64,000 nt of DNA from Nitrospiraceae bacterium (lineage in GTDB: Bacteria; Nitrospirota; Thermodesulfovibrionia; UBA6902). The stretch lies in the NCBI GenBank assembly GCA_003599025.1, contig QZIL01000093.1, positions 24,512 through 88,511 of the forward strand, given 5' to 3'. Numbering within the stretch: position 1 is the first letter of the stretch; every line of letters begins with the position of its first letter. Made by a program: the position numbers and the translations under genes. Positions 32,796 through 52,576 of the stretch are shown piece after piece. The notes beneath the pieces are model-generated. The model had not been told where the DNA came from. It did not search any database and was given only the letters and a program-made list of their open reading frames with translations.

Positions 32796-32805
32796 AGGAG
32801 GATTT

Positions 32806-33324
32806 ATGAGAAAGATATTTTTTCTGATTATTATCATTTCTGTGGCCGCATTCAGTGCTCAGGCAGCTGAGCTCAAGATTGGATACATAGATTTTCAAAA
32901 GATCGTATCGCAATCCGAGCAGGGCAAGCAGGCAATGAAGACACTGGATAGCATTGAGAATGCAAAAAATGCTCTTATTAATGATAAGATCGAACAGATC
33001 AAGAAGCTTGAAGAGGAGCTGACCAAGCAGGGGGCTGTCCTTAATCTTGAGACCAAAGAAAAGAAACAGGCAGACCATGAAAGACTGATGATGGAATATC
33101 AGAAGATGAGAAGAGACCGTGACGAAGAACTGAAAAAGAATGAGGCTGAATTAATCCAGAAGATAGTCCTGGATGTCAGAAAACTCCTGGCAAAGATATC
33201 TGAAGAGGAGGGCTATGCGGTAATTCTTAATGAGGCCGGCATTGCATATATCCGCCCTGAGTCTGACATGACTGACAGGGTGCTTAAATTGTTCAATGAA
33301 TCTTCTGTTAACGTTAAAAAATAG
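32806..33324 (+). CDS. skp: OmpH/Skp family periplasmic chaperone
   Basis: 172 aa; signal peptide, KIGYIDFQKI start of Skp fold, coiled-coil body. Confidence 0.8.
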   Translation: MRKIFFLIIIISVAAFSAQAAELKIGYIDFQKIVSQSEQGKQAMKTLDSIENAKNALINDKIEQIKKLEEELTKQGAVLNLETKEKKQADHERLMMEYQKMRRDRDEELKKNEAELIQKIVLDVRKLLAKISEEEGYAVILNEAGIAYIRPESDMTDRVLKLFNESSVNVKK

Positions 33325-36940: not shown

Positions 36941-37333
36941 ATGTCCGATTTTGTAAAAGACGACATAGCACTTGCCAATGCTGTAGGCGCAGGCATTACT
37001 CATTCGTGTGAGTCGTTTGTGGAAGAATATACCGACCTTGTGCTGTCCAGGGTATGGAACCTTGCAAAGACTCACTGCGGACATCCTGCCAGAGAAAGAG
37101 TATGTTCTCTTGTCATACTTCAGAAACAGAGGAAAGGCTCTGATTATTACGTTGAAGACCAGTGTGATGACTGCCTGGACTCATACATATGGTTTTTTGA
37201 TTTCCTGAAAAGAAAGGTCAAGACATATAAAGGGACCAATAACTGCCGTCTCAAGACATATGTCTGGTCATTGGTCAACTCCAACTCTACATATATTGAA
37301 TGGTTAAGGTGGAAATATGGAAGGGCCTTTTAG
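36941..37333 (+). CDS. sigma-70 family region-2-like protein with Cys-rich insertion (possible split sigma factor, part 1)
   Basis: 130 aa; FVEEYTDLVLSRVW...TYVWSLVNSNSTYIEWLRWK resembles sigma70_r2; Cys cluster HSCES..HCGHP..C..DQCDDC. Confidence 0.45.
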   Translation: MSDFVKDDIALANAVGAGITHSCESFVEEYTDLVLSRVWNLAKTHCGHPARERVCSLVILQKQRKGSDYYVEDQCDDCLDSYIWFFDFLKRKVKTYKGTNNCRLKTYVWSLVNSNSTYIEWLRWKYGRAF

Positions 37334-37928
37334 CAAAACCGTCATAGAGAGGTTCCCGTCAGTAATTAAAGCCCTGAATGAAACCTGTCAGCAGGCTTTC
37401 ATATATCTGCGTTTAAGAAAAACAGAAACAGAAATATCAAGGCTGCTTAATCTGACTATTGATGATACTCGGGAAATGATAGAAACAGTCCGGAATGAAC
37501 TCATCAGGGCCGGTCTGCTCGACCTGATAGAAGATCCACGCTTTGTACCGATACACTCGGACGACCCTGACCTGCCTGACCTGCCGATTGAGGCAGGGGA
37601 ACTTGCTGCAGACAGCAGACTTATTGTCAGTGAATTCTTCTCACATCTCAAGGATGCAGTCACTAAGCTTCATGGTCATCAGACCAATCTGTTACGGCTG
37701 AGATACAAACACCAGCTTTCGGCCAAAGATATACTGGGGTTCTGCAAACATATTGGGACAAGCCTTGTCCCCGGCAGAGATGTTTCAGAACTGAAAGAAC
37801 AGGATGTCTTCTATGCACTCAATACAGCAGTAAAAGAGGTCCTTAAACAGCTGAAGTCCCGGTACAAGGGAGAAGAATCATTCAGTACGGAGAACCTCAA
37901 ATACATCTTTGAAGAGATTGGCTTGTGA
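37317..37928 (+). CDS. sigma-70 region-4-like protein with duplicated HTH (possible split sigma factor, part 2)
   Basis: 203 aa; +1 frame and 17-nt overlap with previous ORF; two region-4-like segments (QQAFIYLRLRKTETEISRLLNLTIDDTREM and NLLRLRYKHQLSAKDILGF). Confidence 0.45.
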   Translation: MEGPFSKTVIERFPSVIKALNETCQQAFIYLRLRKTETEISRLLNLTIDDTREMIETVRNELIRAGLLDLIEDPRFVPIHSDDPDLPDLPIEAGELAADSRLIVSEFFSHLKDAVTKLHGHQTNLLRLRYKHQLSAKDILGFCKHIGTSLVPGRDVSELKEQDVFYALNTAVKEVLKQLKSRYKGEESFSTENLKYIFEEIGL

Positions 37929-37981
37929 GAGGTTTAAATCTCCAGCATCCTGTCCGTCTAATTAAGAACGGGAGGTAATAT

Positions 37982-38875
37982 ATGGAACATATAAGTCTTG
38001 AAAAAATATTATCTTACACCGGGAAACGGCTCGATGACCGGGAGGCCCGTGAAGTTGAGGGGCATCTGGCAACATGTGAAAGGTGTCATGAGGTGTTTAT
38101 GGGCCTGAATTCAGCCGGAATTGCGGTGGGCAGGGCCTTTGATCCGGAACCTGCTACATCTTTATGCCCGGAAGACTGGGAGATGGCTGCACTGGTCCGG
38201 AAGGAACTTCCCTCCCAAACTGCAGAAAAGATAAAGACCCATTTGAAGGATTGCGGTTTCTGCGTTGACAGGGCTGCCGGATATTATAAGGCCTTGCATT
38301 TTGAAAGGCCTCCATTTATAACCCCTGAACAGTGGAAACATAAGGCCGTTCAGGGCATGGAAAACAGGCATGCAGTTATGGAGGAAGCAAAGGTTTCATT
38401 AATGCAACGCATTTTGTCTTCTTTCTCACAGATGACATCACCGCTGCCTGCTGTTGCCGGACTGGCTATAGCATTGCTCGCAATTGCCGTAATTACATGG
38501 ATCATCCTGCCGGGGAAAGGTACTCTGCAGGCCCTTGCATCAAATGAGACCCTGCTCATGAGGGATTCCGAAATCCCTTCATCGCTCGGTTTTTCCGGGA
38601 CTGATGATATAAGGGAAGTCAGCAAGATGGACATATCCCTTAACGGGAAGGAAATAATATTCATGTGGAAACCCATAGAAGGGGCGGTTGAATACAACTT
38701 CACGCTCATGGAAGGAAAACATCCTGTCTATGATGTGAAGACAGGCAACGGCGCACTGGTTGCTTTAAGCAATGAACTGATAGAGACACATACGACGTAT
38801 AACTGGCTTATTACCGGCAGGACAGCCGATAACAGATATTTTGAATATAAGGGCAACGTTGTACTGGTCAAGTAA
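37982..38875 (+). CDS. zf-HC2 anti-sigma factor, membrane-spanning
   Basis: RBS gggagg; HLATCERCHE and HLKDCGFCVD zinc-finger motifs; single TM (AVAGLAIALLAIAVITWIIL); periplasmic C-terminal domain. Confidence 0.6.
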   Translation: MEHISLEKILSYTGKRLDDREAREVEGHLATCERCHEVFMGLNSAGIAVGRAFDPEPATSLCPEDWEMAALVRKELPSQTAEKIKTHLKDCGFCVDRAAGYYKALHFERPPFITPEQWKHKAVQGMENRHAVMEEAKVSLMQRILSSFSQMTSPLPAVAGLAIALLAIAVITWIILPGKGTLQALASNETLLMRDSEIPSSLGFSGTDDIREVSKMDISLNGKEIIFMWKPIEGAVEYNFTLMEGKHPVYDVKTGNGALVALSNELIETHTTYNWLITGRTADNRYFEYKGNVVLVK

Positions 38876-38918
38876 CATGTCGATAGTCAGCAAGATAAGA
38901 AGTTGGGAAGTTAAGAAG

Positions 38919-40610
38919 ATGAGAAACAAAATTATTGTGGCCTTTGCTCGACAGCTAAACATCTTATGTTCTCATTTTCTATTTATTGCAATCTTCATGG
39001 CCTTTGCCTCTTCAGGGGCCTTTGCCGAAGACAGGGGAAGAAAGGAATTCTGGATAAACAAATACGGAATAACAAAAGAATACAGGTATACTGCGCGGGC
39101 ATACGCAGTGTTTGAGAGGGTCCTTGCTGCAGCCGACAGGCGGACCGGGATTGAACCTGCTTTATATATTGTGGATTATGATAAAACACCCTGGGCGCAG
39201 GCCCTTGCCGACGGTTCAATAATCCTGTCGAGAAAGGGCCTTGAATTTTGCTACAGCAGACAGGCCCCTGAAGACGGTGACTCGAGGCTGGCCTTTGTAA
39301 TAGGTCATGAGCTGGCCCACCAGTTTAACGGGGACTTCTGGCATTACAAATTCCTGAGAACAGCAGAAGACAGCGATGATAACATCCGGGCCTTTCAGGA
39401 CATAAAAGAACTCGCAAAGAGCACGGACATGCTTCTGGCCAAGGAACTGCAGGCAGACCAGTATGGCATTATTTTCGCCACAATGGCTGGTTACAACAGT
39501 GACAGGATCATTGCCGGTGACAGGAATTTTTTCCTTGAATGGGCTGAAAAAGAGACGCCTTCAGGCCGTCTGACCGAAAATCTCCGGTCCCTGTCCAGCA
39601 AAAGGGCAAAGGCTGTGTCAATGCGTCTCCAGGAAGTTTCGGACAGGATAGTCCTTTTTGATATGGGGGTCATCAGTTACCACCTTGGAAGGTTTGATGA
39701 GTCCCTGGTGCTTTTTAAAAGGTTTGCTTCCTTTTTCCCGGGCAGGGAGGTCTATACAAATGTCGGCACAATATACCTGCAGATGGCCTACAATAAATTC
39801 CGTATGGCAAGGAGTCCCGAGTCTTTTCCCTATGCACTCTCTTTCGGTATTGAAAAAAGGACGAGGGCCGAGTCTATTGATATTGCTTCAAAGGGCTTTA
39901 CAGAAACCGGGTACCGGGAATATAATGAGCTACTTCACATCGCGACCGATAATCTGAAAAAGGCGATTGAATATGATCCGTTTTACCACGAGGCAAAAAA
40001 CAATTTAGGATGCGCCTATATTATGGAAAACAGATATTATGACGCGGTATCTGTACTTGAGGATGCATTGAAGTCAGCACCTGATAGTGCTAAAATCCAG
40101 AATAATCTGGGGGTCGCCTATATTATGCTTGGACAATCAGTCGGCAGTAAGGGCCTTCTGGAAAAAGCGGAAAAAATGTTACTGGCTGCCCGGACCAGGG
40201 ACCGGAAGGCAGGCAGTAATTTCACTTCCTATCAGCGTATGTTTACGGATTTAAACAGCGGCCCTGAATCAGATAGTCCGATTGATGACCCGTTTGATGA
40301 TATTAATATTGAATTCAAGTCTTCTCCAAAATATAAACCTGAGATGAGTGTTTCTCCCGGGTACGGCCTTTCTTTGCTGGAAGTGATTTCTGACAGGGGG
40401 GATTCTGATCTGAAGGTTTTAAAGAAGGTCAGGGAAAATATATTCATCCTTGCCATGGGAGACAGAATTCGTCTGGTCTTATATAAAGAACCATCTCAAC
40501 TGATTACAAATATAAAAGGAGGTGAGCAGAGAAGCGTCTATGTGTCTGGCACGGGCAGGAACGGCGTTGTTATTTCAGTAAATACATCGCCTGATTATTT
40601 TGAATTTTAA
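38919..40610 (+). CDS. M48 family metallopeptidase with TPR repeats (BepA-like)
   Basis: signal peptide; HELAHQ zinc motif; C-terminal TPR-like repeats (NNLGCAYIMENRYYDA..., NNLGVAYIMLGQ). Confidence 0.7.
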   Translation: MRNKIIVAFARQLNILCSHFLFIAIFMAFASSGAFAEDRGRKEFWINKYGITKEYRYTARAYAVFERVLAAADRRTGIEPALYIVDYDKTPWAQALADGSIILSRKGLEFCYSRQAPEDGDSRLAFVIGHELAHQFNGDFWHYKFLRTAEDSDDNIRAFQDIKELAKSTDMLLAKELQADQYGIIFATMAGYNSDRIIAGDRNFFLEWAEKETPSGRLTENLRSLSSKRAKAVSMRLQEVSDRIVLFDMGVISYHLGRFDESLVLFKRFASFFPGREVYTNVGTIYLQMAYNKFRMARSPESFPYALSFGIEKRTRAESIDIASKGFTETGYREYNELLHIATDNLKKAIEYDPFYHEAKNNLGCAYIMENRYYDAVSVLEDALKSAPDSAKIQNNLGVAYIMLGQSVGSKGLLEKAEKMLLAARTRDRKAGSNFTSYQRMFTDLNSGPESDSPIDDPFDDINIEFKSSPKYKPEMSVSPGYGLSLLEVISDRGDSDLKVLKKVRENIFILAMGDRIRLVLYKEPSQLITNIKGGEQRSVYVSGTGRNGVVISVNTSPDYFEF

Positions 40611-40720
40611 TCGGGATAACTCTGTCCGTCCAATAATAATTACAATGATACTTTCCCTCACCCGGACCGGTTCTGAGAGCAGGAGGGCGATATTAAGGGA
40701 ACAAAAAAAGGAGGTCAGTA

Positions 40721-41311
40721 ATGAAAAAAGCTGTGAGGTTATGGTTTGTCTTATTATCAGCAATGGTATTGATTTCAGGATGTGCAGGCAGCAAGAAAGT
40801 GACCGATATGACACCGATACAGGAACTTAAGGCCCCTGAATGGGTAATGAAGGGAAGCGGTGCATTTGGCGGGGAAAAGGGCAAGGTGTTTTACGGGGTG
40901 GCGTCAGCCTCAAGGATGCAGAACATTTCCCTTATGCGTACTGCCGCAGACAACCGGGCGAGGAATGAAGTCGCAAAGGTCTTTCAGTTTTACACAGCGT
41001 CTCTGATGAAAGATTACGCTGCATCTACCGTTGCAGGAGACCCTGATGTCAGCTCTGAGGAACAGCATGTTGAGCAGGCCATAAAGACAGTCACGTCAAT
41101 GACTCTGTCCGGTGTTGAAGTTGTAGACCACTGGCAGAACCCTGCCACTCAGGAATTCTTCGCCCTTGCCAGGCTGGACCTCAATTCATTCAAGGACAAC
41201 TTTGACAAGATGCAGACCCTGGACAAGAAGGTAAGAGATTACATCAGAGAAAACGCGGACCGCATGCACGAGGAACTCGAAAAAGAAGAGGCAAAAAAGG
41301 CGGGCCAGTAA
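40721..41311 (+). CDS. LPP20/FlgP-like lipoprotein
   Basis: RBS aaggagg; lipobox LISGC; PEWVMKGSG...GVASA...AADNRARNEVAKV LPP20-type core. Confidence 0.55.
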   Translation: MKKAVRLWFVLLSAMVLISGCAGSKKVTDMTPIQELKAPEWVMKGSGAFGGEKGKVFYGVASASRMQNISLMRTAADNRARNEVAKVFQFYTASLMKDYAASTVAGDPDVSSEEQHVEQAIKTVTSMTLSGVEVVDHWQNPATQEFFALARLDLNSFKDNFDKMQTLDKKVRDYIRENADRMHEELEKEEAKKAGQ

Positions 41312-41411
41312 CAGGTAAATTGACGGGTTGCAGGGGGTGACATTTGCTCTGCAGCCCGGACATAAATTCGAAGTTGCTGAGAAGGCCATAAGTATGATTA
41401 CAACTTGGTTC

Positions 41412-41487
41412 GTCATTCCCGCAATACGTTGAGCGGGAATCCATTTAAGGAACTGGATACCTGATTAAGGACTTTGGGTATGACAGT
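41412..41487. repeat. family-A element
   Basis: GTCATTCCCGCaatacgttgaGCGGGAATCC...GGGTATGACAG; related to the 52375 copy. Confidence 0.65.
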
Positions 41488-41545
41488 CAATAACGGATCA
41501 TACATATAAGCTTATTGATAGGTAATTAGGATATGTGAGGTTGCC

Positions 41546-41995
41546 ATGAAAAAACTTTTTCTGACATTAACAATAATTCTGTCTATGACCGGCACGGTCT
41601 TTGCCGGCCCTGAAAGAGTAACGCTGATTACAGAGGATGAAGGCGCCATGAAAGATGCCCCCCCAGGACTTTATGACGTGGGGAGGGTTCTTAACACCGG
41701 TCCTGAGATAAAGATTATTTCACCCGAAATTGCAGATGAATATCATCCCCCTGTTGACATTAACATTGTTTTTGAACCGACAGATGATGCGAAAGTCGAC
41801 ATGTCAAAGTTCAAGGTTGAGTATATTAAAATAATGTCTCTTGATATTACAGACAGGTTTTTGCAATACACAACTAAAGATGGGATAAGGATCAAGAATG
41901 CCGACTTCCCGAGAGGCAAACACAAATTGAAGGTCACTATCGGGGATGATCATGGCGGGATAACTGAGGAGATATTTACAGTCAAGCTGCTGTAG
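41546..41995 (+). CDS. secreted hypothetical protein
   Basis: 149 aa with signal peptide (TGTVFA/GPE); no family recognised. Confidence 0.45.
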   Translation: MKKLFLTLTIILSMTGTVFAGPERVTLITEDEGAMKDAPPGLYDVGRVLNTGPEIKIISPEIADEYHPPVDINIVFEPTDDAKVDMSKFKVEYIKIMSLDITDRFLQYTTKDGIRIKNADFPRGKHKLKVTIGDDHGGITEEIFTVKLL

Positions 41996-42191
41996 TTTTT
42001 TAGTGTTCCGGCGGTCTGCGGCGATCAGACAGAAGACTGCTGAAACCAATTGTCATTATTAGAAACTGTCATGCCCGTTCCGTGACAAAGCGCGGAACGG
42101 GTCTCCGGTTATTTAAAGAGCTGCTGCCTGTTCCATAAGTTATGACGCTGAGGACAGGTTTTACCGGAATTATAGAAAAAGGACACGAAGC

Positions 42192-42839
42192 ATGTTCAGA
42201 TTACAGTCTCTTTTTTCATTGCTGGTTTTTCTGATTGCATTGGCAGACGGTGCCTCTGCAGGGTCTGCTTATGACAATGTTTACGCGGAATACCCGAAAG
42301 ATAAATACCTTGTGGGTATAGGCGAGACCGGCAGGACCGGGAATTTCCTGAATGACAAAAGGGTTGCTGAGGTGCTTGCGAGGCTCGAAATTGCCAAGCA
42401 GATAAAGGTCAGGCTCAAAGAAGAAACCGTAGATATAATGTGTGAAGGCGGGGCAGCAAGGCTGTTCAAAGACATGCGCGAATGCAGAAATGAATTTGTC
42501 ATGGTAGTTGAAGTCACTGTCGATGAGTTTCTTTCGGGCTCAAAGATAGTCAGTCATTGGGAACAGGATGGAATTGTATATGCAGTAGCTGTACTGCCGA
42601 AGGCAGAGGCTGTCAAAGAACTTGATGACAGGTCAAAGGAGTCGGCAGACAGGACCAGGGAAAATATTGAAAAGGCCAAAAACGGAGACGACGGGGCTGC
42701 TGGCGAAGCACAAAGGGAATATATGAAAGCAGTGACATATGACAGGGAAAAAGAGATGCTTGACGGAGTCAGAAGCCGTTCATCGGACATGTTTGATGAG
42801 CTTGAGAAGGAGTTGGTGAAGCTGGGGGGTAAGGAATGA
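42192..42839 (+). CDS. LPP20-like secreted protein
   Basis: 215 aa; signal peptide; YLVGIGETG...AEVLARLEIAKQIKVRL core similar to 40721 and 45301 products. Confidence 0.5.
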   Translation: MFRLQSLFSLLVFLIALADGASAGSAYDNVYAEYPKDKYLVGIGETGRTGNFLNDKRVAEVLARLEIAKQIKVRLKEETVDIMCEGGAARLFKDMRECRNEFVMVVEVTVDEFLSGSKIVSHWEQDGIVYAVAVLPKAEAVKELDDRSKESADRTRENIEKAKNGDDGAAGEAQREYMKAVTYDREKEMLDGVRSRSSDMFDELEKELVKLGGKE

Positions 42840-45160
42840 AAACCATAAAGATGGCAATGCTGCTTTTGGTCCTTATTATGCCGGCATATGTTTATTCTGC
42901 CGACAACAAAAAAGATCCCTCTCAGAATGGGGAGAAAACTGACTTCAGGATATTTAAGGGCCATTCAGAGGAAGTTCTCACGATTGCCTTAAGTCCGGAC
43001 GGCCGGATGCTGGCATCGGGTGGTGAAGATGAAATTGTTATTCTCTGGAATGTATCCACCGGAGAAAAGATAAGGACGCTCAAGGGACACTCGGGCCATG
43101 TTACGGCACTGTCCTTCAGTCCTGCCAACCAGACACTGGCTTCTGGAAGCAAGGACAAGAAGATAATTATATGGGATGCAGCTACCGGTGAGAAGATAAA
43201 GGACTTCAGTGACGACAGCTTCGATGCTGTCCTGTCAATTGCCTTCAGTCCTGACGGCAAAAGCCTTGCGGTCGGAAGTGAGGAGGAAACCATTACCTTA
43301 TGGGACCCGGAATCTGGAAAGACAATAAGAACTCTGAAGGGACATTCAGATGAAGTCTGTTCCCTGGCCTTCAGCCCAGACGGAAAATTGCTCGCCTCAG
43401 GCAGCGGTGATAAAACAATTATTATATGGAACCCTGTGACCAGCGAAATCCGCAACACCCTGAAAGGCCACAAAGATACGGTAAACTCTGTGGCGTTCAG
43501 TCCCGATGGCCGGGTGTTGGCCTCTGGTAGTGAGGACAGGACAATCGCCCTCTGGAATATTGCTTCCGGGGAAAAAATAAATATGCTGACTGACAATAAA
43601 GACTCTGTGCAGTCTGTTGCCTTCAGTCCTGATGGAATGCTTCTCGTCTCAGGCAATGAGGACGAAACCGTTACCATATGGGACGCGCAGACCGGAGGTA
43701 AACTAAAAATTCTTTCAGGGCATAAGGACATGATTACATCAGTTATATTCAGTCTGGATGGAAGCTCCCTTATATCAGCCGGTGAGGACAGAAATATAAT
43801 TGTCTGGAATACCGGCTACAGGACCTCATTCGCAGGTCCGCCGGCATCTGTCCCCTCACCCGCTGCTCCCCTGTCGGCAACAAAGGCCCCGGCAAATAAA
43901 ATCCCGGAAGTCAAGGTCCCGACTGTTAAAACCCCGGCATTTGCCCCTAATCTCCCTGTTCTGGCTGCGCCTGAACTGATGTACGATGTCAGGGTGGATG
44001 ATGCGAATGGCAACGGGATTTTCGAGGGAGGAGAAACTATCAAAGTGACAGTGAATATTGAAAACAGGGGCAAGGGTGCTGCCGAGGCTGTTGAGATATT
44101 GGTGTCCGGCAATAATTCACTGATATACTGCCTTGGAAACAGCAGGGTTGTGGGCGATGTTGGCCCCGGCAGTAAAAAAGATGTAATCCTGCAATGCACT
44201 CTGCCCACTCGCCTTAAGGCTGAAACAGCCCACATTTCTCTGGAACTGGCAGAGCAGAGGGGTTATTCACCCGCGGAAATAAAGTCCTTTACTGTTGCCA
44301 TGAAACCAGCTGATATAATAAAGACCGAGCACATAATTTCCCGGCATATAGATGTGGATGTGGTCCCTGCAAAAAACAGTAATTTCAGGAGGGACAATTC
44401 ATATGCTCTTGTAATAGGGATCAGCAATTATCGTGACAAGGAAATTCCTCCGGTCAAATACGCAAAATCAGACGCGGAGAAATTTGCAAAGTACCTCGAA
44501 AATATCGGAGGGGTCCCGGCAAAGAACATCAAGCTGGTCACTGACGAGATGGTGACCAAGGGTGACATTGAAGCATATATCGAAGACTGGCTGCCGAGAA
44601 GGATAAAAAAAGATTCCGAGGTCTTTGTTTATTATGCCGGACACGGTACTCCTGACCCCCGTACCGGTGAGGCATATATTGTACCATATGACGGAAATCC
44701 TGATTACAAATCAAAGCTCTATCCCCTTAAAAGGATGTATGCCTCTTTAAACAAGCTGCCGTCAGAACAGGTTGTTGTTATGCTGGATTCCTGTTTCTCC
44801 GGAGGAGGGGAGAGGGGTGTAATGAGTCAGGGGACCAGGCCTGTAAGTCTGTCTGTTGAGAACCCTATCCTGGCCGGAGGGAAGGTTTTTGTACTTGCTT
44901 CAGCTTCAGGGACGCAGATAAGTTCAGATTTTGATAAGGTAAAACACGGATTATTTACTTATTATCTTCTTAAAGGGATGAAGGGCGATGCGGACGAAGA
45001 CATGAACGATAAAATAGAGCTTCAGGAACTCTATAAGTATGTAAAGCATAACGTCTCTGAGACCGCATCATCTGAACTGAACAGAGAACAGATGCCTGTG
45101 CTTCTGCCTGATATGGAGCAGCACAGACCTGCAGCGATCGAAATAACAAGGGTGAAGTAG
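42836..45160 (+). CDS. secreted WD40-repeat / CARDB-like / caspase (peptidase C14) fusion protein
   Basis: 774 aa; signal peptide; seven WD40 blades (LASGS.D..I.IWD); CARDB-like middle; C-terminal caspase fold with His (YYAGHG) and Cys (LDSCFSGG) dyad. Confidence 0.8.
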   Translation: MKTIKMAMLLLVLIMPAYVYSADNKKDPSQNGEKTDFRIFKGHSEEVLTIALSPDGRMLASGGEDEIVILWNVSTGEKIRTLKGHSGHVTALSFSPANQTLASGSKDKKIIIWDAATGEKIKDFSDDSFDAVLSIAFSPDGKSLAVGSEEETITLWDPESGKTIRTLKGHSDEVCSLAFSPDGKLLASGSGDKTIIIWNPVTSEIRNTLKGHKDTVNSVAFSPDGRVLASGSEDRTIALWNIASGEKINMLTDNKDSVQSVAFSPDGMLLVSGNEDETVTIWDAQTGGKLKILSGHKDMITSVIFSLDGSSLISAGEDRNIIVWNTGYRTSFAGPPASVPSPAAPLSATKAPANKIPEVKVPTVKTPAFAPNLPVLAAPELMYDVRVDDANGNGIFEGGETIKVTVNIENRGKGAAEAVEILVSGNNSLIYCLGNSRVVGDVGPGSKKDVILQCTLPTRLKAETAHISLELAEQRGYSPAEIKSFTVAMKPADIIKTEHIISRHIDVDVVPAKNSNFRRDNSYALVIGISNYRDKEIPPVKYAKSDAEKFAKYLENIGGVPAKNIKLVTDEMVTKGDIEAYIEDWLPRRIKKDSEVFVYYAGHGTPDPRTGEAYIVPYDGNPDYKSKLYPLKRMYASLNKLPSEQVVVMLDSCFSGGGERGVMSQGTRPVSLSVENPILAGGKVFVLASASGTQISSDFDKVKHGLFTYYLLKGMKGDADEDMNDKIELQELYKYVKHNVSETASSELNREQMPVLLPDMEQHRPAAIEITRVK

Positions 45161-45194
45161 AGGTACTAAGACATAACTTAACAAAGCCTCATGC

Positions 45195-45253
45195 CCGTCA
45201 TTCCGGGCTTGACCCGGTCGGATCGACTCGCCCCGACCTTCGCGGGAATGACA
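45195..45253. repeat. family-A element variant
   Basis: cGTCATTCCGGG...GGTCGGatcgactcgcCCCGACC...CGCGGGAATGAC. Confidence 0.6.
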
Positions 45254-45300
45254 AACAAGGTGGCTTTCAATATGTAGTTGTTAGTAAGGGGTAGGTTCAC

Positions 45301-45837
45301 ATGAAGTTATTTCTGACATCGATTTTTCTTTTTTCATTCTTGACAGCCTGCCAGTCAGCCTATGTCAAACCATCAGGCCCGCCGCCTGCCTGGGTGGTCA
45401 GGACGCCTGATATGAAAGGCATGATCTGTGCTGTCGGGGCAAGCGGTCCCACGTATTTCAGGGATGACGCGCAGTTGAATGCTGCTGAAAACGCGAGGGC
45501 GGAGCTCGCAAGGACGATAAGCGTCAGCATTAAGAACATAATGGTCGAGATGACTTCTGACAAAGGCAGCTATATTGATGACGCGACCGTAAGTGAGGTC
45601 TCGTCTTGGGCCACCTCGGCAGTTGTGGAAAATTCCAGCATAATGGAGTACTGGTATGACGCGGACGGTCAGGTGTCGAAAAAGGATTTCACCTATGCCC
45701 TTGGCTGCATGCCGCGCAAGTTTGACAGGAAGTCTCTTGAGGCGCACATGTCTGATTCACATTCTGCCGGCCAGGGGAGTCATAATGACATCAGCCGCGC
45801 GGCAGATGAGATACTCAGGCAGCTTGAGGGGGAGTGA
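45301..45837 (+). CDS. LPP20/FlgP-like lipoprotein
   Basis: 178 aa; lipobox LTAC; PPAWVVRTPD...AVGASG...AAENARAELARTISVSI. Confidence 0.55.
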   Translation: MKLFLTSIFLFSFLTACQSAYVKPSGPPPAWVVRTPDMKGMICAVGASGPTYFRDDAQLNAAENARAELARTISVSIKNIMVEMTSDKGSYIDDATVSEVSSWATSAVVENSSIMEYWYDADGQVSKKDFTYALGCMPRKFDRKSLEAHMSDSHSAGQGSHNDISRAADEILRQLEGE

Positions 45838-45925
45838 ATGCTTATGTTGGTTCAATCATTCTGATTGAACTATAAAGCTAAATTATATGGAGCATCTCCG
45901 AAAAAGTGCTAATAAGCAGATGGTT

Positions 45926-45998
45926 GTCATTCCCGCGCAGGCGGGAATCCAGAGCCTTTGAAAGGACCAGATTCCGGTTTAAGGACTGCCGGAATGAC
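45926..45998. repeat. family-A element
   Basis: GTCATTCCCGCgcagGCGGGAATCC...gccGGAATGACag; overlaps the 5' leader of the FGE-like gene. Confidence 0.7.
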
Positions 45999-46007
45999 AG
46001 GAAGGGC

Positions 46008-47054
46008 ATGAAAAATATAATCCTGGCCATCATTATCTCTATGGTATTATCCTCTTATGCATTCGCTGCCGAGGTCAAGAACGTTGTCTCCTCCCAGTCA
46101 GGCAACCGCGTGCTCTTTGAATATGACCTGACCGGAGAAGAGAAAGAGGCTGACGTTAATATCACGATCACCGTCAACGGCACGGCCTATAGCGCAGAAA
46201 AGCTCTACCTTGAGGGTGATTATGGGAAGGTCAGCTTAGGCAAGGGTAGGAAGATATACTGGAACGTGCTCCAGGACTTTCCGAGGGGACTTAATACGAC
46301 GTTTGAGTGGGAGATAACTGAGGGAGGCAAAGACTTCAAAGATCCGTTGACAGGAATGGAGTTTGTCTTTGTTAAAGGTGGGTGTTTTCAGATGGGGGAT
46401 ACGTTTGGCGATGGAGATGCGGATGCGAAGCCGGTACATGAGGTGTGCGTGGATGATTTTTATCTGGGGAAATATGAGGTGACTCAGAGGCAATGGAGAG
46501 AGGTTATGGGGAACAATCCTTCGTATTTCAAGAACTGTGGCGATGACTGCCCTGTGGAACAGGTGAGTTGGAACGATGTGCAGGAGTTCATTAATAAGCT
46601 GAATGAAAAGATAACCCCCCATAGTCCCCCCTTAGATAAGGGGGGAAGAAAAGGGGGGTACAGACTTCCTACAGAGGCGGAGTGGGAGTATGCCGTACGG
46701 AGCTGTGGGAAGAAGGAGGAGTACTCAGGTAGTGACAGTATTGACAGTGTGGCATGGTATGACAGTAATTCGGGAAGAAAGACACATCCTGTAGGGCAGA
46801 GAAGTCCTAATGGTCTCGGCATTTATGACATGAGCGGCAATGTATGGGAATGGGTACAGGACTGGTACGGGGAGAAATATTACGGTGAAAGTCCCAAGTA
46901 CAATCCTAATGGACCGAACAGTGGAACCGCTCGCGTGCTGCGCGGCGGGTCTTGGAGCAATATTACGAGGTATGCTCTCACATCCAATCGCGTCAGGTAC
47001 CATCCCGACTACAGATTCAACAACGTCGGGTACCGCCTTCTTTGGACTAAGTAG
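46008..47054 (+). CDS. secreted FGE-sulfatase (SUMF1/EgtB/PvdO) fold protein, apparently lacking the catalytic Cys pair
   Basis: signal peptide; N-terminal beta domain; FGE core (YRLPTEAEWEYA...NGLGIYDMSGNVWEW...RVLRGGSW...VGYRL). Confidence 0.8.
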   Translation: MKNIILAIIISMVLSSYAFAAEVKNVVSSQSGNRVLFEYDLTGEEKEADVNITITVNGTAYSAEKLYLEGDYGKVSLGKGRKIYWNVLQDFPRGLNTTFEWEITEGGKDFKDPLTGMEFVFVKGGCFQMGDTFGDGDADAKPVHEVCVDDFYLGKYEVTQRQWREVMGNNPSYFKNCGDDCPVEQVSWNDVQEFINKLNEKITPHSPPLDKGGRKGGYRLPTEAEWEYAVRSCGKKEEYSGSDSIDSVAWYDSNSGRKTHPVGQRSPNGLGIYDMSGNVWEWVQDWYGEKYYGESPKYNPNGPNSGTARVLRGGSWSNITRYALTSNRVRYHPDYRFNNVGYRLLWTK

Positions 47055-47276
47055 TTTATTAGTCTTTAGACTTTTTGCTTTTTTACACTTTGTTTTTTTG
47101 GGGTACAGGGGCATTGCCCCTGTAGAAAATAAATATGGAGGTAGGATAGGAGCACACTCCTCAGTCCCTTCTCGGAATCGAGTCAATACGACTTTATAGA
47201 GAAGAGATACAGTGAAACAACTTGAAATATGAAAAGTACATAAGTAATCTAATAAAAAATCATTAAATCGTTTATT

Positions 47277-47618
47277 ATGAAGAAGACAATAAAACCGCCT
47301 CTAAGAAAGTCTGTGCTGAACACCATATTAAAACGTCTGGTGGATAACCTTGACGTTGTCAAGATAATCCTATTTGGCTCCTATGCTTCAGGCAAGCCGA
47401 CAAAGGACAGCGACCTGGACCTTCTCATCATTCTGAATACCAAAGAAAAAGGGCTGAAACGCTATGCGATGGTCAGTGAGCTGCTTGAGCCGAGAAAAAT
47501 ACCGATGGACATCATTGTAAAGACGCCTGAAGAGATGAAGAGCAGGGCCAGGATGTTTGACCCATTTTTGAGAACGGTTCAGAAAACAGGGAAGATCCTC
47601 TATGAAAAACCAGCCTGA
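47277..47618 (+). CDS. nucleotidyltransferase (MNT-type antitoxin)
   Basis: 113 aa; LFGSYASGKPTKDSDLDLLIIL Pol-beta NTase motif. Confidence 0.8.
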   Translation: MKKTIKPPLRKSVLNTILKRLVDNLDVVKIILFGSYASGKPTKDSDLDLLIILNTKEKGLKRYAMVSELLEPRKIPMDIIVKTPEEMKSRARMFDPFLRTVQKTGKILYEKPA

Positions 47619-47988
47619 TGTCCTTGAATGGATATTGAAAGCAGAACAGGATTATGAGACTGCTGAAACAATGGCCCGCAGAAGGAAGAATCCTGTGCCT
47701 GATGTGGTCGGTTTCCACAGCCAGCAATGCATTGAAAAATATTTAAAGGCCTATCTCGTTTTGAAAAAGCTCGATTTTCACAAGACGCACGACCTGCTTG
47801 AACTCCTTGAAATAGCTCTCGCAAAAGATCCGCTCCTCGAAGGATACAGGGCCGACCTGCGACTGTTAAATCCATTCTCTGTTCAATTCCGTTATCCCGG
47901 TGAAAGCGCGACACTGGAAGAGTCAAAAACGGCATTGAAGGCCATGCGCAAGGTGCGGATGTTTATTAGAGAAAAGTTTAATCTGTAA
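47602..47988 (+). CDS. HEPN domain protein (toxin partner of MNT)
   Basis: 128 aa; overlaps MNT gene by 17 nt; HEPN fold with conserved ...FRYPG.. region. Confidence 0.75.
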   Translation: MKNQPDVLEWILKAEQDYETAETMARRRKNPVPDVVGFHSQQCIEKYLKAYLVLKKLDFHKTHDLLELLEIALAKDPLLEGYRADLRLLNPFSVQFRYPGESATLEESKTALKAMRKVRMFIREKFNL

Positions 47989-48005
47989 AGTCACAGGGAT
48001 GGGGC

Positions 48006-49397
48006 ATGTTTAAAAAATTATCTGCCGTTACATTAGCAATTATCCTTTCAGCCTCAATGGCTTTTGCCGAGAAAGGCTCTCTTAAGATCGGCATCCTTCC
48101 CGCGCCCCCAAACATTTCAGCGAGCGTGAAATTTACCGAGCCGTCAGGCAACAACATCCTCGACGCGGAGGAGACAGGCACGCTGACCATCATTATAAGC
48201 AATTCCGGGAAGGGGGACGCCTTTGACGTCACGGCTGAGCTAAAGGCGGACAAAAAGACCAGAGGCTTTACCTATAACAATACCGTATCTTTTGGCACGA
48301 TACCTGCCGGTAAGCAGTCATCGATGGACATTGAACTAAGGGCCGGGGAAGACATCCCCACCGATAATATAGCTTTCTCGATAACCGTAAAGGAGGCAAA
48401 CGGCTTTGACGCGGACCCGCTTAAGGTGGCGTTCAGGACAAAGTCCTTTGAGCCTCCAAGTCTCATTATCGCTGACATCGGCATAGACGACCAGAACGGC
48501 AATTCATCTGTCGAGCAGATGGAGATTGTGGTTGAGGGCGTAGACGCGCCGAAGGGAGAGATAAGGGTAGCAAAAGGTCTCAGCGTGGACATTGAACAGG
48601 GCCTGCCGGTCACAAAGACACAGAACAGGGACGCCTTTGCGGTGGTCATGGGCAACTCGGAGTACAAATACGCGAAGAACGTCGACTTTGCGGTAAATGA
48701 CGCTCAGATGGTAAAACGCTATTTGACCGAAGTCCTTGGCTTCAGGGAGGGCAATATCTTCATACTTGCCAACGCGACAAAAGGGGACCTTGAGCTCTAC
48801 TTCGGGACCAAAGACAATTTCAAAGGCAAACTCTTTAACCAGGTAAAGCCGGGCAGGTCGGACATTTTTATCTATTATTCAGGGCATGGCGCCCCGGGCC
48901 TGAAAGACAGGAAAGGCTACATCGTCCCTGTCGAGGCAGACCCGCAATATATCGAACTGAGCGGCTACCCGCTGGATGTCTTCTACAGCAACCTCTCGAA
49001 GCTTCCTGCAAAGTCCGTGACGGTAGTGACGGACGCGTGCTTTTCAGGCGCAGACATTTATGACAGCATCTCACCGATAGTCCTTGAGATAGACAACCCG
49101 GTCATAAACCTGAATAACGGAATCGTGCTTTCAAGTTCGACAGGAACTCAGGTCTCGACATGGTACAATGAGAAGAAGCACGGGATGTTCACGTACTTCT
49201 TTTTGAAAGCAATACACGACAGGAACGCGGATTATGATGGGAACAGGGAGCTTACATTTGATGAAATTTACCGGTATATTTCGGACAGGTCCGACGGCGT
49301 TCCCTATTACGCAAGAAGCATACATAATGTGGAGCAGACGCCTGTCATTCAGGGAAAGTATCAGGGCAGGGTGTTGGTGACGTATGAGGAGAAATGA
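48006..49397 (+). CDS. secreted caspase family protein (peptidase C14) with N-terminal CARDB-like domains
   Basis: 463 aa; signal peptide; His (IYYSGHG) and Cys (VTDACFSG) catalytic dyad. Confidence 0.8.
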   Translation: MFKKLSAVTLAIILSASMAFAEKGSLKIGILPAPPNISASVKFTEPSGNNILDAEETGTLTIIISNSGKGDAFDVTAELKADKKTRGFTYNNTVSFGTIPAGKQSSMDIELRAGEDIPTDNIAFSITVKEANGFDADPLKVAFRTKSFEPPSLIIADIGIDDQNGNSSVEQMEIVVEGVDAPKGEIRVAKGLSVDIEQGLPVTKTQNRDAFAVVMGNSEYKYAKNVDFAVNDAQMVKRYLTEVLGFREGNIFILANATKGDLELYFGTKDNFKGKLFNQVKPGRSDIFIYYSGHGAPGLKDRKGYIVPVEADPQYIELSGYPLDVFYSNLSKLPAKSVTVVTDACFSGADIYDSISPIVLEIDNPVINLNNGIVLSSSTGTQVSTWYNEKKHGMFTYFFLKAIHDRNADYDGNRELTFDEIYRYISDRSDGVPYYARSIHNVEQTPVIQGKYQGRVLVTYEEK

Positions 49398-49496
49398 AAA
49401 TAAACACACCCCTCTATCCCTTCTTTTTAGAGGGGATGAATTGGAATGGCCCAAAAAATGAAAACAGTGTCCGTCAAAATATTTAAACACATAAAT

Positions 49497-49528
49497 ACCT
49501 GGATTCCGGATCAAGTCCGGAATGACGC
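49497..49528. repeat. family-A element, partial (3' module)
   Basis: ggattccggatcaagtccggaatgacgcc. Confidence 0.5.
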
Positions 49529-49592
49529 CATTAAACTGAAGCATTGATTGTTTATTATTAGAATAATGAATTAACGATATTATGGAGGGCAT

Positions 49593-50930
49593 ATGAAAAA
49601 AATATTTCTGGTATCGGCCATATTATTCATTTTTACCTCGTCAGCCTTTGCCGAGTTCCCTGCTGTAAAGGTATACGAGAAGACGGCAAAGAATGTTGTG
49701 CTGATAATCGCCAAAAGCGAAGACACCAGCAGTATGATAGGCGCGGGATCCATTATTTCAGGCACTGGACTGGTCTCTACAAACGCACATGTAGTTGTTG
49801 ACAAGTCTACCTCAAAACCATATTCAAAGATCAGGGTATATCTTAAACCTGATAAGGTGACCGGGAAGTTCAGGAAGGACCTTGTCCATAGCCATAAGGC
49901 TGAAATAGTAGCATATGACATCGACCTGGACCTGGCCATTCTGAAAGCTGAAGAAATCCCGTCCGGGACAGGGACCATAGAACTTGCAAACCCGGATGAG
50001 ATAAAAGTCGGCGAAGAGGCAGTGGCTATCGGCCACCCTGAGCAGGGAGGCCTCTGGACCCTCACATACGGAAGAATAAGCGGAGAAATAGAAGACCAGA
50101 ACAGCATAAAGGGTAAAGACGTATTTCAGACAGACGCGAGCGTCAACCGCGGCAATTCCGGCGGCCCTCTCCTCGATAAAAGAGGGTACATGATAGGCAT
50201 AAACTCAAACATGGCGCGTCTGGGGGCAGGTGATATTCCGATAACAGGTGTTAATTTTGCTGTCAAGGCCTCGGTGCTGAAAAGCTGGCTTCAGAAGCAG
50301 GGGATTACACTTGCTTATGGAAAAGCGGACCTGTACAAAGAAGAACGGGTGAAGCCCGCAGGAGCAGAACTTGAGATGGAGAAAAAATCTGAACAACCGG
50401 AAGTACCAAGGGCAGAACCCTCTGTTGAGAAAGCAGAGCCTGTTATAGAGAAACCGGAACCGTCTGTTGAAAAGACTGAGCCGTCGGTAGAAAAAGCAGA
50501 ACCAGTCGCTGAGAAAGCGGAACCATCTGTTGAAAAGACTGAGCCGTCGGTAGAAAAAGCAGAACCAGTCGCTGAGAAAGCGGAACCATCTGTTGAAAAG
50601 ACTGAGCCATCAGTAGAAAAAGCCGAACCTGTCGTTGAGAAGGCGGAACCATCTGTTGAAAAGGCGGAAGCCCCTGTCGAGAAGGCGAAACCTGTAATAA
50701 GGCAGGCTGAACCACCTGTCAGGAAATCACATACTGTTGTTGAAAAAGCGGAACCCCGTGCTGAACAGAAAGACATGAAAGACGGGGACGGAGAGAAAAC
50801 GCCGGAGACTGAACAGACTGAAAAATACCAGCCTCATCGTAAGGCCTACAGCTATGACTCATTGTTGAAGGCAGCTGAAGAAGATCTTGAAGACATGATG
50901 GAGGAGATGAGGGGAAAGATCAGAAGGTGA
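49593..50930 (+). CDS. secreted trypsin-like serine protease with C-terminal EK/P-rich tandem-repeat linker
   Basis: signal peptide; TNAHVV (His), DLAIL (Asp), GNSGGPL (Ser) triad; C-terminal repeats (EKAEPSVEKTEPSVEKAEPVA)n. Confidence 0.7.
   Translation: MKKIFLVSAILFIFTSSAFAEFPAVKVYEKTAKNVVLIIAKSEDTSSMIGAGSIISGTGLVSTNAHVVVDKSTSKPYSKIRVYLKPDKVTGKFRKDLVHSHKAEIVAYDIDLDLAILKAEEIPSGTGTIELANPDEIKVGEEAVAIGHPEQGGLWTLTYGRISGEIEDQNSIKGKDVFQTDASVNRGNSGGPLLDKRGYMIGINSNMARLGAGDIPITGVNFAVKASVLKSWLQKQGITLAYGKADLYKEERVKPAGAELEMEKKSEQPEVPRAEPSVEKAEPVIEKPEPSVEKTEPSVEKAEPVAEKAEPSVEKTEPSVEKAEPVAEKAEPSVEKTEPSVEKAEPVVEKAEPSVEKAEAPVEKAKPVIRQAEPPVRKSHTVVEKAEPRAEQKDMKDGDGEKTPETEQTEKYQPHRKAYSYDSLLKAAEEDLEDMMEEMRGKIRR
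50448..50700 (+). repeat. in-frame 63-bp coding tandem repeat (about 3.5 units)
   Basis: the unit gagaaagcggaaccatctgttgaaaagactgagccgtcggtagaaaaagcagaaccagtcgct is repeated nearly perfectly inside the protease gene. Confidence 0.75.
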
Positions 50931-51817
50931 TGAAGATAGAGAGCATAAAAATAATCAAATGCCTGCTTTCATTTTTTATTGTTACATATGCTGTGGCGGT
51001 ATATTCTTCAAAGGCGCTTAGAGCTGAGGACACGGCCCCGCTTGTTCCGGACAATGATAACCTTAAGATAGTAGAAGCTGTTGGAGAAATTCTGCTTGGT
51101 GATGACACCACCCCTGCACAGGGCAGGGCAATGGCCCGTAATAACGCGAGGAGAAATGCTCTTGAACAGGCAGTAGGGGTAAAGGTCCACAGCTCGACAG
51201 TTTTATACAATAGCAGCCTTATAAGCGACCTTGTTGTAACAGCCACCAAGGGGCTGATAGTTGAAGAACAAATAATTGATGACGGGCCGGTCATAAAAGG
51301 AGACCAGATATATCATATTTGCAAGCTCAGGGCATATGTAAAGCCTGTCAATATAGAAAAGAGAGGGAACTTCAGGGTCCTTAAAGCTGAAGTCCTGAGG
51401 GCCGGGTCGGACAGAGGTCTTAAAAACCCTGTATTTCAGGACAATGATGAAATACAGGTGATAGTAAGTGTTAATGAAGCTTCACATATAAATATTTTCA
51501 GCGTGAGCCAGGACGGAATGGTTTCGCAGCTTTATCCGAATAAATTTTTTAAATCAGAGCAGCTGGCTGCCGACAAGACCATGATATTCCCGGATGATGC
51601 CCAGCGGGCACTTGGACTGAGACTCCGTGTAAGGACCCCGAAAAAACTGAGCTCGGCACTTGAATCGGTGCTCGTGGTAGCTTCAAAGGAAATGATCGAG
51701 TTGCATCCTGCAGACGGGATGAATGAGCTTATGCTTACGGACGTTCTGAAGAGTCTTTCTGGAATCGATCCGTCATTATGGGCTGATATGACAGTCGGGT
51801 ATGAGGTGAGGAAGTAG
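50927..51817 (+). CDS. LPP20-like plus DUF4384 domain protein
   Basis: 296 aa; signal peptide; N-terminal LPP20-like core (AVGEIL..AQGRAMARNNARRNALEQAVGVKV); C-terminal DUF4384-like (EIQVIVSVNEASHINIFSVSQDGMVSQLYPNKFF). Confidence 0.55.
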   Translation: MMKIESIKIIKCLLSFFIVTYAVAVYSSKALRAEDTAPLVPDNDNLKIVEAVGEILLGDDTTPAQGRAMARNNARRNALEQAVGVKVHSSTVLYNSSLISDLVVTATKGLIVEEQIIDDGPVIKGDQIYHICKLRAYVKPVNIEKRGNFRVLKAEVLRAGSDRGLKNPVFQDNDEIQVIVSVNEASHINIFSVSQDGMVSQLYPNKFFKSEQLAADKTMIFPDDAQRALGLRLRVRTPKKLSSALESVLVVASKEMIELHPADGMNELMLTDVLKSLSGIDPSLWADMTVGYEVRK

Positions 51818-51835
51818 CGGGTCAATTTTACCTTA

Positions 51836-52055
51836 ATGTTGCATAAAGCAGGCAAGCGGCCTTGCTGTAAAACCTTTACAATGCGATGGTAAATTGGGAT
51901 TAAACTTTGGCAGCAGGTCTTAATGCTAAGCGAAGTTCAGAATAATATACGTTATGCTTTTATGAATCTTGCTGAGGTATCGCAGGTAAAGCTTTTCCGT
52001 CAAGCCCGCTCACCTTATACGAGTAATTTAATGCAACTGGAAAGTTTATATATGA
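51836..52055 (+). repeat. conserved ~225-nt noncoding element, copy 2
   Basis: shares blocks with copy 1: taatgtt.cataaa.caggcaagcggcc, aaacctttacaatgcgat, gcaggtaaagcttttcc.tcaag.ccgct, taatgcaactg. Confidence 0.5.
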
Positions 52056-52066
52056 AGTGAGGTGAT

Positions 52067-52285: not shown

Positions 52286-52374
52286 CGTGTACATGAATCA
52301 GGATAGACATAATTGTATTTATTAAGACGGTCATAAGTAAAGCGGCATAGCTTGACTTAAAGTACCTACTGTTG

Positions 52375-52443
52375 GCAGTCTGTTGAGCGGGAATCCGGAC
52401 AGCTAAAGAACTGGATGCCAGATTAAGAACTTCGGGCATGACG
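52375..52443. repeat. family-A element, 5'-truncated
   Basis: ...ttgaGCGGGAATCCggacagctaaagaactggat...ttcgGGCATGACg; similar to the 41412 copy. Confidence 0.55.
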
Positions 52444-52576
52444 CTAATTTATTTATCTTTACTTTTGACTTCATTAGTATATGCACTTTAAATCTTTCTG
52501 CGCTTTGATGTAAAATTAACGTCGGCTTAATTATTGGTTGAGCAATAAATATCATCTGACAGGAAACGATATATAA

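Follow-up and report, generated by a model that had tools for sequence, protein, structure and literature searches.

An exported protein with the fold of formylglycine-generating enzymes and no catalytic cysteine pair

The DNA analyzed here is a 64-kb stretch (hereafter, the window) of contig QZIL01000093.1 from a Nitrospiraceae metagenome-assembled genome (MAG). Positions 46008-47054 encode a protein with the fold shared by formylglycine-generating enzymes (FGEs) and C-type lectins (CLec), which we refer to as the lectin. Its open reading frame (ORF; plus strand, ATG to TAG) follows a good ribosome-binding site (AGGAAGGG), and the 348-amino-acid product is identical to GenBank RJR15915.1 from the MAG of a Nitrospiraceae bacterium, which lies on a 102,827-bp contig and is labeled "formylglycine-generating enzyme family protein." The gene stands in an island that also encodes caspase-like proteases (Table 1).

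The N terminus of the lectin (MKNIILAIIISMVLSSYAFA followed by AE) reads as a typical Sec signal that ends between AFA and AE and lacks a lipobox Cys. The A20-A21-E22 junction is at least 90% conserved among orthologs, which supports the claim of a first-pass annotation of this DNA that the protein is exported. Next comes an Ig-like domain of about 90 residues, absent from FGEs and from TvpA, a relative described below. This domain is conserved among orthologs (mean pairwise identity, 0.57), and a fold search of the PDB returned only generic Ig/Fn3-like matches (best E value, 0.03); it is a candidate docking domain. The remainder of the protein matches the Pfam FGE-sulfatase family PF03781 (residues 118-345) and contains all of the FGE core motifs that the first-pass annotation had quoted: YRLPTEAEWEYA (residues 218-229), NVWEW (278-282), RVLRGGSW (309-316), and VGYRL (340-344).

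The segment that follows RGGSW, residues 317-348, contains no Cys. When the lectin was aligned by HMMER with the FGEs of S. coelicolor (PDB 2q17/6muj) and T. curvata (6s07), in which the compared segment reads "...GGS[YF]LCH[DE]SYCNRY...", the first catalytic Cys fell in a 4-residue gap of the lectin and the second aligned with Ile319. Of 103 orthologs, 7 have a single Cys in this segment, and none has two. The first-pass annotation had proposed a PF03781 fold without the Cu-binding, catalytic Cys pair, with cysteines at shifted positions as the alternative; the proposal holds, and the alignments argue against the alternative. Human SUMF1 and the S. coelicolor and T. curvata enzymes share the fold with the lectin (Foldseek E value, ~1e-16; TM score, 0.62 to 0.67), as well as the core motifs RLPTEAEWE, NxWEW, and RGGS. 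The lectin differs in its missing cysteines and in that the segment corresponding to the FGE active site is hypervariable in its family. No sulfatase was found among the approximately 20 neighboring products scanned around the lectin gene. As the first-pass annotation also held, the lectin is best read as an exported, non-enzymatic binding protein and not as an FGE.

The segment after RGGSW carries the signature of a DGR variable region

By both sequence and fold, the closest solved relative of the lectin is TvpA, a variable protein of a Treponema denticola diversity-generating retroelement (DGR; PDB 2y3c). TvpA matched with an E value of 2e-41, compared with 2e-24 for FGEs, and was the top Foldseek match to the AlphaFold model of the lectin. 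TvpA is reported to lack FGE activity and is considered a binding protein (Wu et al. 2018, PMC5758913), and the FGE-sulfatase-type CLec1 proteins that it exemplifies (category b) are the largest class of DGR targets (PMC5758913). TvpA and the lectin are both exported, both have the FGE-subtype C-type-lectin fold without catalytic cysteines, and both carry a C-terminal variable region (VR), which in TvpA starts directly after RVLRGGSW and ends at GFRL. They differ in that their identity is only about 32%, that the lectin adds the Ig-like N-terminal domain, and that the lectin is encoded in a module with caspase and DUF4384 genes and has no DGR cassette at its locus.

Homologs of the lectin number in the thousands in the database, with more than 8,000 hits. 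For the family analysis, we used 103 full-length orthologs with 57 to 72% identity, from Nitrospirota, Nitrospinota, Syntrophales/Smithella, and Deferribacter. These proteins are strongly conserved throughout, except directly after RGGSW, where the consensus is RGGSWxxxxxxxRAAxRxxxxPxxRxxxxGFRL. The 13 most variable positions all lie in this block, each with a column entropy of 2.8 to 3.7 bits, compared with a mean of 0.83 in the FGE core (residues 113-316). At these 13 positions, which correspond to AAY codons in the template repeats (TRs) described below, pairwise identity averages 0.11; in the FGE core, it averages 0.73. Nearly all residues found at the 13 positions can be reached from AAY codons through changes at adenines; the residues that cannot (K, E, Q, M, and W) make up 2.3% there and 23.5% elsewhere. 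This variability, together with its AAY spectrum, is the signature of a DGR variable region. The first-pass annotation had taken the cysteine-free segment for the degenerate active site of a fold without known function; judged by sequence, it is instead the C-terminal VR of a protein that belongs to the TvpA/CLec1 "FGE-sulfatase" class of DGR targets.

The 21-mer that encodes VLRGGSW contains no adenine and recurs exactly on 44 unrelated metagenome contigs (loci L086-L129), many of them clearly DGR VRs or TRs; at L128, where it stands at 713-733 and 994-1014, a VR and an AAC-rich TR lie 281 nt apart. The scaffold nucleotide sequence is thus strongly conserved across DGR targets. As a search for a TR acting in trans on the window, the same metagenome scan returned only unrelated FGE-type VRs and TRs and is uninformative, since the collection does not hold the contig of the window.

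DGR cassettes lie directly beside orthologs of the lectin gene

We compared the gene content of eight loci of the ortholog family. The closest ortholog (P0002; 72% identical) is encoded at locus L081 of a Nitrospirae MAG (GCA_016217725.1, contig JACRHB010000041.1), where the gene order is DUF4384, an Avd-like gene, the target, bAvd, an RVT_1 reverse transcriptase (RT), a short "FGE-like" ORF, MNT, HepT, and a CARDB-caspase. The short ORF is the TR (11354-11464). Over 119 nt it aligns with the 3' end of the target gene, and 21 of the 22 mismatches fall at template adenines. The same bias is seen between VR and TR at three further loci, L085 (19 of 22 mismatches at template adenines), L130 (13 of 15), and L133 (22 of 23). 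At all four loci, bAvd/HRDC and RVT_1 genes adjoin the ortholog, and the four TRs share a common design, in which AAY codons occupy the hypervariable positions and the scaffold positions carry CGN, CCN, and GGN-TTY-CGN. The RT relatives of these DGRs include cyanobacterial RTs with about 55% identity.

In every ortholog with a DGR, the cassette lies directly beside the gene. Two other loci are intermediate stages of DGR decay among the orthologs: L082 retains bAvd (11141-11476) after the target, and neither RT nor TR was found at this locus, while L131 consists of DUF4384, target, DUF2442, and caspase, the whole cassette being gone. The targets of the loci with DGRs (Nitrospirota and Syntrophales/Smithella MAGs) are 57 to 72% identical to the lectin over the full length, with the same domain order; DUF4384, a toxin-antitoxin (TA) pair, and the CARDB-caspase are neighbors in both, and the spacer and hairpin that follow the VR are the same. 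What sets the window apart is the avd-RT-TR cassette, which lies between the target and the TA pair or caspase in the orthologs and is absent from the window.

The window retains a VR and lacks the cassette

The segment of the window homologous to the ortholog TRs is listed in Table 1. The 13 codons at AAY positions read AGC, AAT, ATT, TAT, AAT, GTC, TAC, CAT, TAC, TTC, AAC, AAC, and GTC; all 13 are of the form NNY, and 12 share their third base with the TR of L081. Between the window and the L081 gene, these codons show 0.77, 0.69, and 0.08 differences per site at codon positions 1, 2, and 3, respectively, compared with 0.15, 0.11, and 0.43 in the FGE core. Such an inverted pattern is what adenine mutagenesis of AAY codons yields and what ordinary divergence does not.

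Two scaffold residues of the window are unusual. Residue 324 (46977-46979, CTC) is Leu, compared with Arg in 99 of 102 orthologs, and residue 342 (47031-47033, TAC) is Tyr, compared with Phe in 98 of 103. Both positions carry non-A bases in all four ortholog TRs examined. Changes of this kind are expected in a VR that has ceased to be overwritten from its TR. Leu324 and Tyr342 may reflect drift after DGR loss.

No component of a cassette was detected. The RT motifs YxDD and IGNLTSQ were not found in any of the six frames of the 64-kb window; an adenine-tolerant sliding comparison of the VR with both strands of the 64 kb returned no TR, and a repeat search likewise gave no copy of the VR. A scan of the whole window against Rfam gave no match. 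At the DNA level, homology with L081 continues through the stop codon, a T-rich spacer, and a GC-rich hairpin as far as 47139 (L081 position 9934), which is 3 nt before the start of avd. After the junction (Table 1), the gene order of L081 resumes at the protein level beyond 47276, with MNT/HEPN and then the caspase. Loss of the cassette through recombination between VR and TR was considered and rejected: the spacer and hairpin are kept to within 3 nt of avd, and the sequence that follows the TR is absent. The gene order of the window recurs on an independent JGI contig, and the VR there is identical.

The hairpin is part of a block, GGGGTRCAGGGGC, that L081, L085, and L130 have in the corresponding position, and it may be a DGR target-site hairpin. 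The 3' boundary of the VR, a candidate boundary of the IMH type, is likewise conserved in these three loci. It was not called an intrinsic terminator in a terminator scan. No covariation was seen in it, the sequences compared being too similar. With no cassette at its locus, the lectin gene has an orphaned VR, which may be frozen or may be serviced from elsewhere in the genome.

TABLE 1 Features of the lectin gene and its neighborhood in the window
Feature	Position	Strand	Evidence or remark
WD40 beta-propeller plus caspase, exported	42836..45160	+	NCBIfam NF047832, 2e-27 (residues 522-741); PADLOC caspase, 1.9e-17
LPP20 lipoprotein gene	45301-45837		Between WD40-caspase and lectin
FGE/C-type-lectin-fold exported protein gene (lectin)	46008..47054	+	ORF; PF03781, 1.4e-48; exact database match; AlphaFold (AF2) pLDDT, 82
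Signal peptide, residues 1-21, predicted cleavage after AFA	46008..46070	+	Sequence reading; model helix 2-15, then low-confidence linker
All-beta Ig-like sandwich domain, residues 22-112	46071..46343	+	Domain model pLDDT, 84
FGE-sulfatase/C-type-lectin-fold domain, residues 113-345	46344..47042	+	Pfam, HMMER; Foldseek top match TvpA (2y3c), E 7.8e-20, TM 0.73
VR relic, homologous to ortholog TRs	46931..47041	+	blastn against TRs of L081 (11354-11464) and L085; codon comparison with four TRs
Hypervariable VR core, residues 317-340, SNITRYALTSNRVRYHPDYRFNNV	46956..47027	+	Column entropy; codon-position differences; amino acid spectrum
GC-rich hairpin, TACAGGGGC-ATT-GCCCCTGTA, 50 nt past stop	47104..47124	+	Candidate DGR target-site hairpin; no downstream T-run
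Junction where avd-RT-TR sits in L081; no detectable remnant	47140..47276	+	Nothing matches L081
MNT (nucleotidyltransferase)/HEPN toxin-antitoxin-like pair	47277..47988	+	Pfam NTP_transf_2, 2.5e-15; HEPN, 4.9e-24; same relative position in L081 and L130
CARDB-like plus Peptidase_C14 caspase, exported	48006..49397	+	Pfam C14, 1.1e-13; signal peptide; His/Cys motifs
DUF4384 protein, exported	50930..51817	+	Pfam DUF4384, 3.6e-12; homologous to DUF4384 genes beside orthologs

The lectin belongs to a conserved module within a protease island

The first-pass annotation had placed the lectin gene between caspase genes. Both caspases are real, and both retain GHG and D[AS]CFSG motifs; they are not immediate neighbors of the lectin gene, since the LPP20 gene intervenes on one side and the MNT/HEPN pair on the other. 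The WD40-caspase is a lineage-specific extra protease of the island. The downstream caspase is 61% identical to its L081 counterpart over the N-terminal 199 amino acids and about 35% identical over the remainder. It is also approximately 100 residues shorter than its orthologs of 563 to 566 amino acids, with the second CARDB-like domain apparently absent, so that on sequence it looks chimeric or rearranged.

Co-occurrence with C14 peptidases, suggested as a check in the first-pass annotation, is specific to this family. A CARDB plus Peptidase_C14 caspase lies within a few kilobases of the lectin gene at all eight loci, and an exported DUF4384 protein is encoded nearby at seven of them. As a background, a contig scan with the ortholog alignment provided 80 loci of generic FGE-domain paralogs among the matches listed (31 to 53% identity); a caspase was nearby at 7 of these 80, several as fusions. 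The difference between 8/8 and 7/80 indicates that the caspase link belongs to the lectin family. Lectin, caspase, and DUF4384 proteins all bear signal peptides, and the three form a conserved exported module.

At nearly every locus, the lectin gene is accompanied by a pair of the toxin-antitoxin type (MNT/HEPN, ParE-like, HicB, YafQ, or Zeta toxin). Its type and exact position vary: it lies at 47277-47988 in the window, at 11790-12424 in L081, and at 10972-11651 in L130, and it was also seen at L082, L085, L131, and L132.

The island as a whole runs from a zf-HC2 gene (37982) through M48-TPR, three LPP20 genes, an unassigned exported protein, the WD40-caspase, the lectin, MNT/HEPN, the second caspase, and a trypsin-like protease to DUF4384, and its structural members all have export signals. 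On one side it is flanked by lpxI and on the other by genes for a Gfo/Idh/MocA-like oxidoreductase and a DegT-type aminotransferase, the last two assigned by eye. No MoxR AAA+ ATPase, vWA, or STAND NTPase was found in the lectin, in the genes at 36941-51817, or in the core module of the ortholog loci, and PADLOC returned no defense-system model for the lectin, the DUF4384 protein, or the LPP20 protein (45301).

Directly upstream of the island (36941-38875, plus strand), two ORFs of 130 and 203 amino acids without a family match precede the zf-HC2 gene, which encodes an anti-sigma-like membrane protein. This placement suggests control of the island by envelope signals; neither of the two ORFs was identified as a sigma factor. 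Within the trypsin-like protease gene (49593-50930), at least 11 tandem 21-nt units (50408-50764, plus strand) encode a low-complexity heptad repeat of the (E/V)EKAEPSV type within the C-terminal half of this exported protein.

Repeats and other features of the window

An intergenic element of about 75 nt is present in three plus-strand copies (41415-41490, 45925-46003, and 52370-52446), one of which ends 5 nt before the start codon of the lectin gene. It has terminal inverted repeats (TGTCATTCC...GGAATGACA) and two hairpins in which stem changes between copies are compensatory (ATACC/GGTAT, ATTCCGG/CCGGAAT, and ATGCC/GGCAT) around a conserved loop, GATTAAGGACT. The element has no Rfam match and looks like a miniature inverted-repeat transposable element or a repetitive extragenic palindromic (REP)-like repeat.

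A non-coding direct repeat of about 230 nt occurs twice on the plus strand, between bamA and skp (32580-32806) and just after the DUF4384 gene (51835-52060). The two copies are 73% identical over 182 nt, with a mean column identity of 81%, and bracket a 19-kb segment that extends from skp/lpx through the caspase island. It could represent a leader or promoter, or else a scar of recombination.

Elsewhere in the window, a low-GC stretch (0.36 to 0.37) at 11891-12463 (plus strand) encodes an exported protein of 190 amino acids with an Lcl_C (DUF1566) domain (E value, 2.1e-17). Lcl_C is a lectin-like domain family whose members are often DGR targets.

A probable DGR-written binding protein orphaned from its cassette

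We consider it probable that the lectin is an exported, non-enzymatic binder with a DGR-written VR, that its cassette has been lost in this lineage, and that it works within an exported three-gene module. In the protein, an Ig-like domain follows the signal peptide and precedes a TvpA-type FGE/C-type-lectin fold; in this reading, the C-terminal 24 or so residues of the lectin fold would form a ligand-binding surface written by the DGR. A neighboring avd-RT-TR cassette would copy the template repeat with adenine-specific errors and paste it over the 3' end of the gene, as seen in the orthologs, where about 13 AAY codons are randomized and the Arg/Pro/Gly-Phe-Arg scaffold is retained. After the loss of the DGR, the VR of the window would most likely have kept a fixed, or "frozen," specificity. 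TvpA and other CLec targets are regarded as binding proteins (PMC5758913, PMC7159879), and by analogy the VR surface may bind a ligand on the envelope side. The lectin may then serve as a recognition subunit that brings this ligand to, or signals to, the co-exported caspase-like protease.

Several points weigh against this explanation. No TR, RT, or Avd was found for the lectin in the 64 kb, and the case for DGR action on it comes from the orthologs and from the codon signature. Compared directly with the L081 TR, the window VR is mismatched at 14 of 34 A sites and 8 of 38 non-A sites (Fisher P = 0.08), a cross-species contrast that is weak taken alone. The 3' boundary of the VR (GGACTAAGTAG) and the downstream hairpin are retained, and a DGR elsewhere in the MAG could service the VR. 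The evidence for functional coupling between caspase and lectin is conserved synteny and shared export. To our knowledge, neither TvpA nor any other member of the family has a known ligand.

The retained boundary also bears on the alternative in which the lectin is an active remote target, its VR being rewritten in trans by a cassette elsewhere in the genome and the protein currently hypervariable in the population. The VR shares its 3' boundary, GGACTAAGTAGTTT, with the L081 VR, the GC hairpin block is preserved, and the cassette search covered 64 kb of the genome. Remote targets are documented for cellular DGRs, including that of Treponema, and targets that do not adjoin the cassette occur in about 12% of DGRs (Wu et al. 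2018, PMC5758913). We nevertheless judge an active remote cassette unlikely. The cassette is immediately adjacent in every DGR-bearing ortholog, and the VR is identical in two assemblies. Among the best 120 homologs of the L081 RT listed, none lies on the 102,827-bp contig of the window or on a 73,263-bp contig, other contigs of the MAG being outside this comparison. R324L and F342Y, both rare, fall at positions that carry non-A bases in the four ortholog TRs.

It is very improbable that the lectin is a static FGE-fold binder that simply lost its cysteines and has no history of hypermutation. The window does lack any DGR component, and many bacterial PF03781 paralogs have neither the Cys pair nor a DGR, with a DGR-type RT nearby at only 5 of the 80 generic FGE loci. 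Against this, the lectin is orthologous over its full length (57 to 72% identity) to proteins with demonstrated VR/TR pairs, and its variable codons, all of them NNY, show the inverted codon-position pattern.

EgtB and OvoA have a DinB-like domain at the N terminus, in which a His triad binds iron. That the lectin is a true member of another PF03781 branch (an FGE with alternative residues, an EgtB/OvoA/PvdO-type oxidase, or a PorK/GldK-like ring lipoprotein) is hardly credible: its weak NCBIfam matches to GldK, PvdO, and EgtB (E values, 6e-26 to 2e-17) and its PDB matches to PorK, PvdO, and EgtB stand against scores far below the curated cutoffs (91.6/350 for GldK [TIGR03525], 65.7/500 for PvdO, and 63.7/360 for EgtB; 34 to 66 bits against cutoffs of 360 to 500 across the EgtB/OvoA/SenA and PvdO models), an Ig-like beta sandwich in place of a DinB-like N-terminal domain, the absence of a lipobox and of the Cys pair, a set of approximately 20 scanned neighbor products with no sulfatase, type IX secretion system component, or ergothioneine or pyoverdine enzyme, and a would-be active-site region whose hypervariability is incompatible with catalysis.

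Relation to known systems and biological meaning

The preferred reading, a DGR-written binder orphaned from its cassette, is already known in kind: the lectin is a new orphaned TvpA-like DGR variable protein, misannotated as an FGE. The TvpA/CLec1 "FGE-sulfatase" class of DGR targets has been described before (Wu et al. 2018, PMC5758913; Kaur et al. 2020, PMC7159879; Dore et al. 2024, PMC10907252). Fusions of caspase and FGE domains were catalogued in 2012 and then read as enzymes (PMC3501461). In cyanobacteria and other multicellular bacteria, DGR-diversified CLec domains joined to caspase or trypsin effectors have been proposed to serve as antigen sensors (Vallota-Eastman et al. 2020, PMC7517822; PMC7159879; PMC10907252). 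Like the window, those conflict systems couple a hypervariable FGE-type lectin to caspase- or trypsin-like peptidases. They are mostly cytoplasmic STAND NTPase fusions or ternary vWA-MoxR systems with adaptor domains (PMC7159879, PMC7517822, PMC10907252), whereas in the window lectin, caspase, and DUF4384 are separate proteins, all with signal peptides, and MoxR, vWA, and STAND are absent from the module.

The separate, exported DUF4384-lectin-caspase trio, suggested by synteny, is possibly the one new aspect; we found no description of it in the DGR and CLec literature compared. We propose only tentatively that the trio is a distinct extracytoplasmic "antibody plus protease" system of Nitrospirota and Desulfobacterota. 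If so, a changing envelope-side ligand (for example, a phage receptor-binding protein, a surface molecule of a competitor, or a toxin) would be caught by the lectin and presented to a periplasmic or surface caspase. The window would then represent a lineage with fixed specificity, in which the module has grown into a multi-protease island (WD40-caspase, trypsin-like protease, M48-TPR, and three LPP20 proteins) downstream of the zf-HC2 gene.

Reading the lectin as a hypervariable binding protein and not as an enzyme corrects a common annotation. For this family at least, it also accounts for the association of caspases with FGE-sulfatase domains that has long been noted, the FGE part being a diversifiable recognition domain. 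The loci form a natural series, from an intact DGR (L081, L085, L130, and L133) through avd only (L082) to the lost cassette (L131 and the window), which can be used to ask what becomes of a DGR target after hypermutation stops. The exported trio is a testable candidate for recognition-coupled proteolysis outside the cytoplasm.

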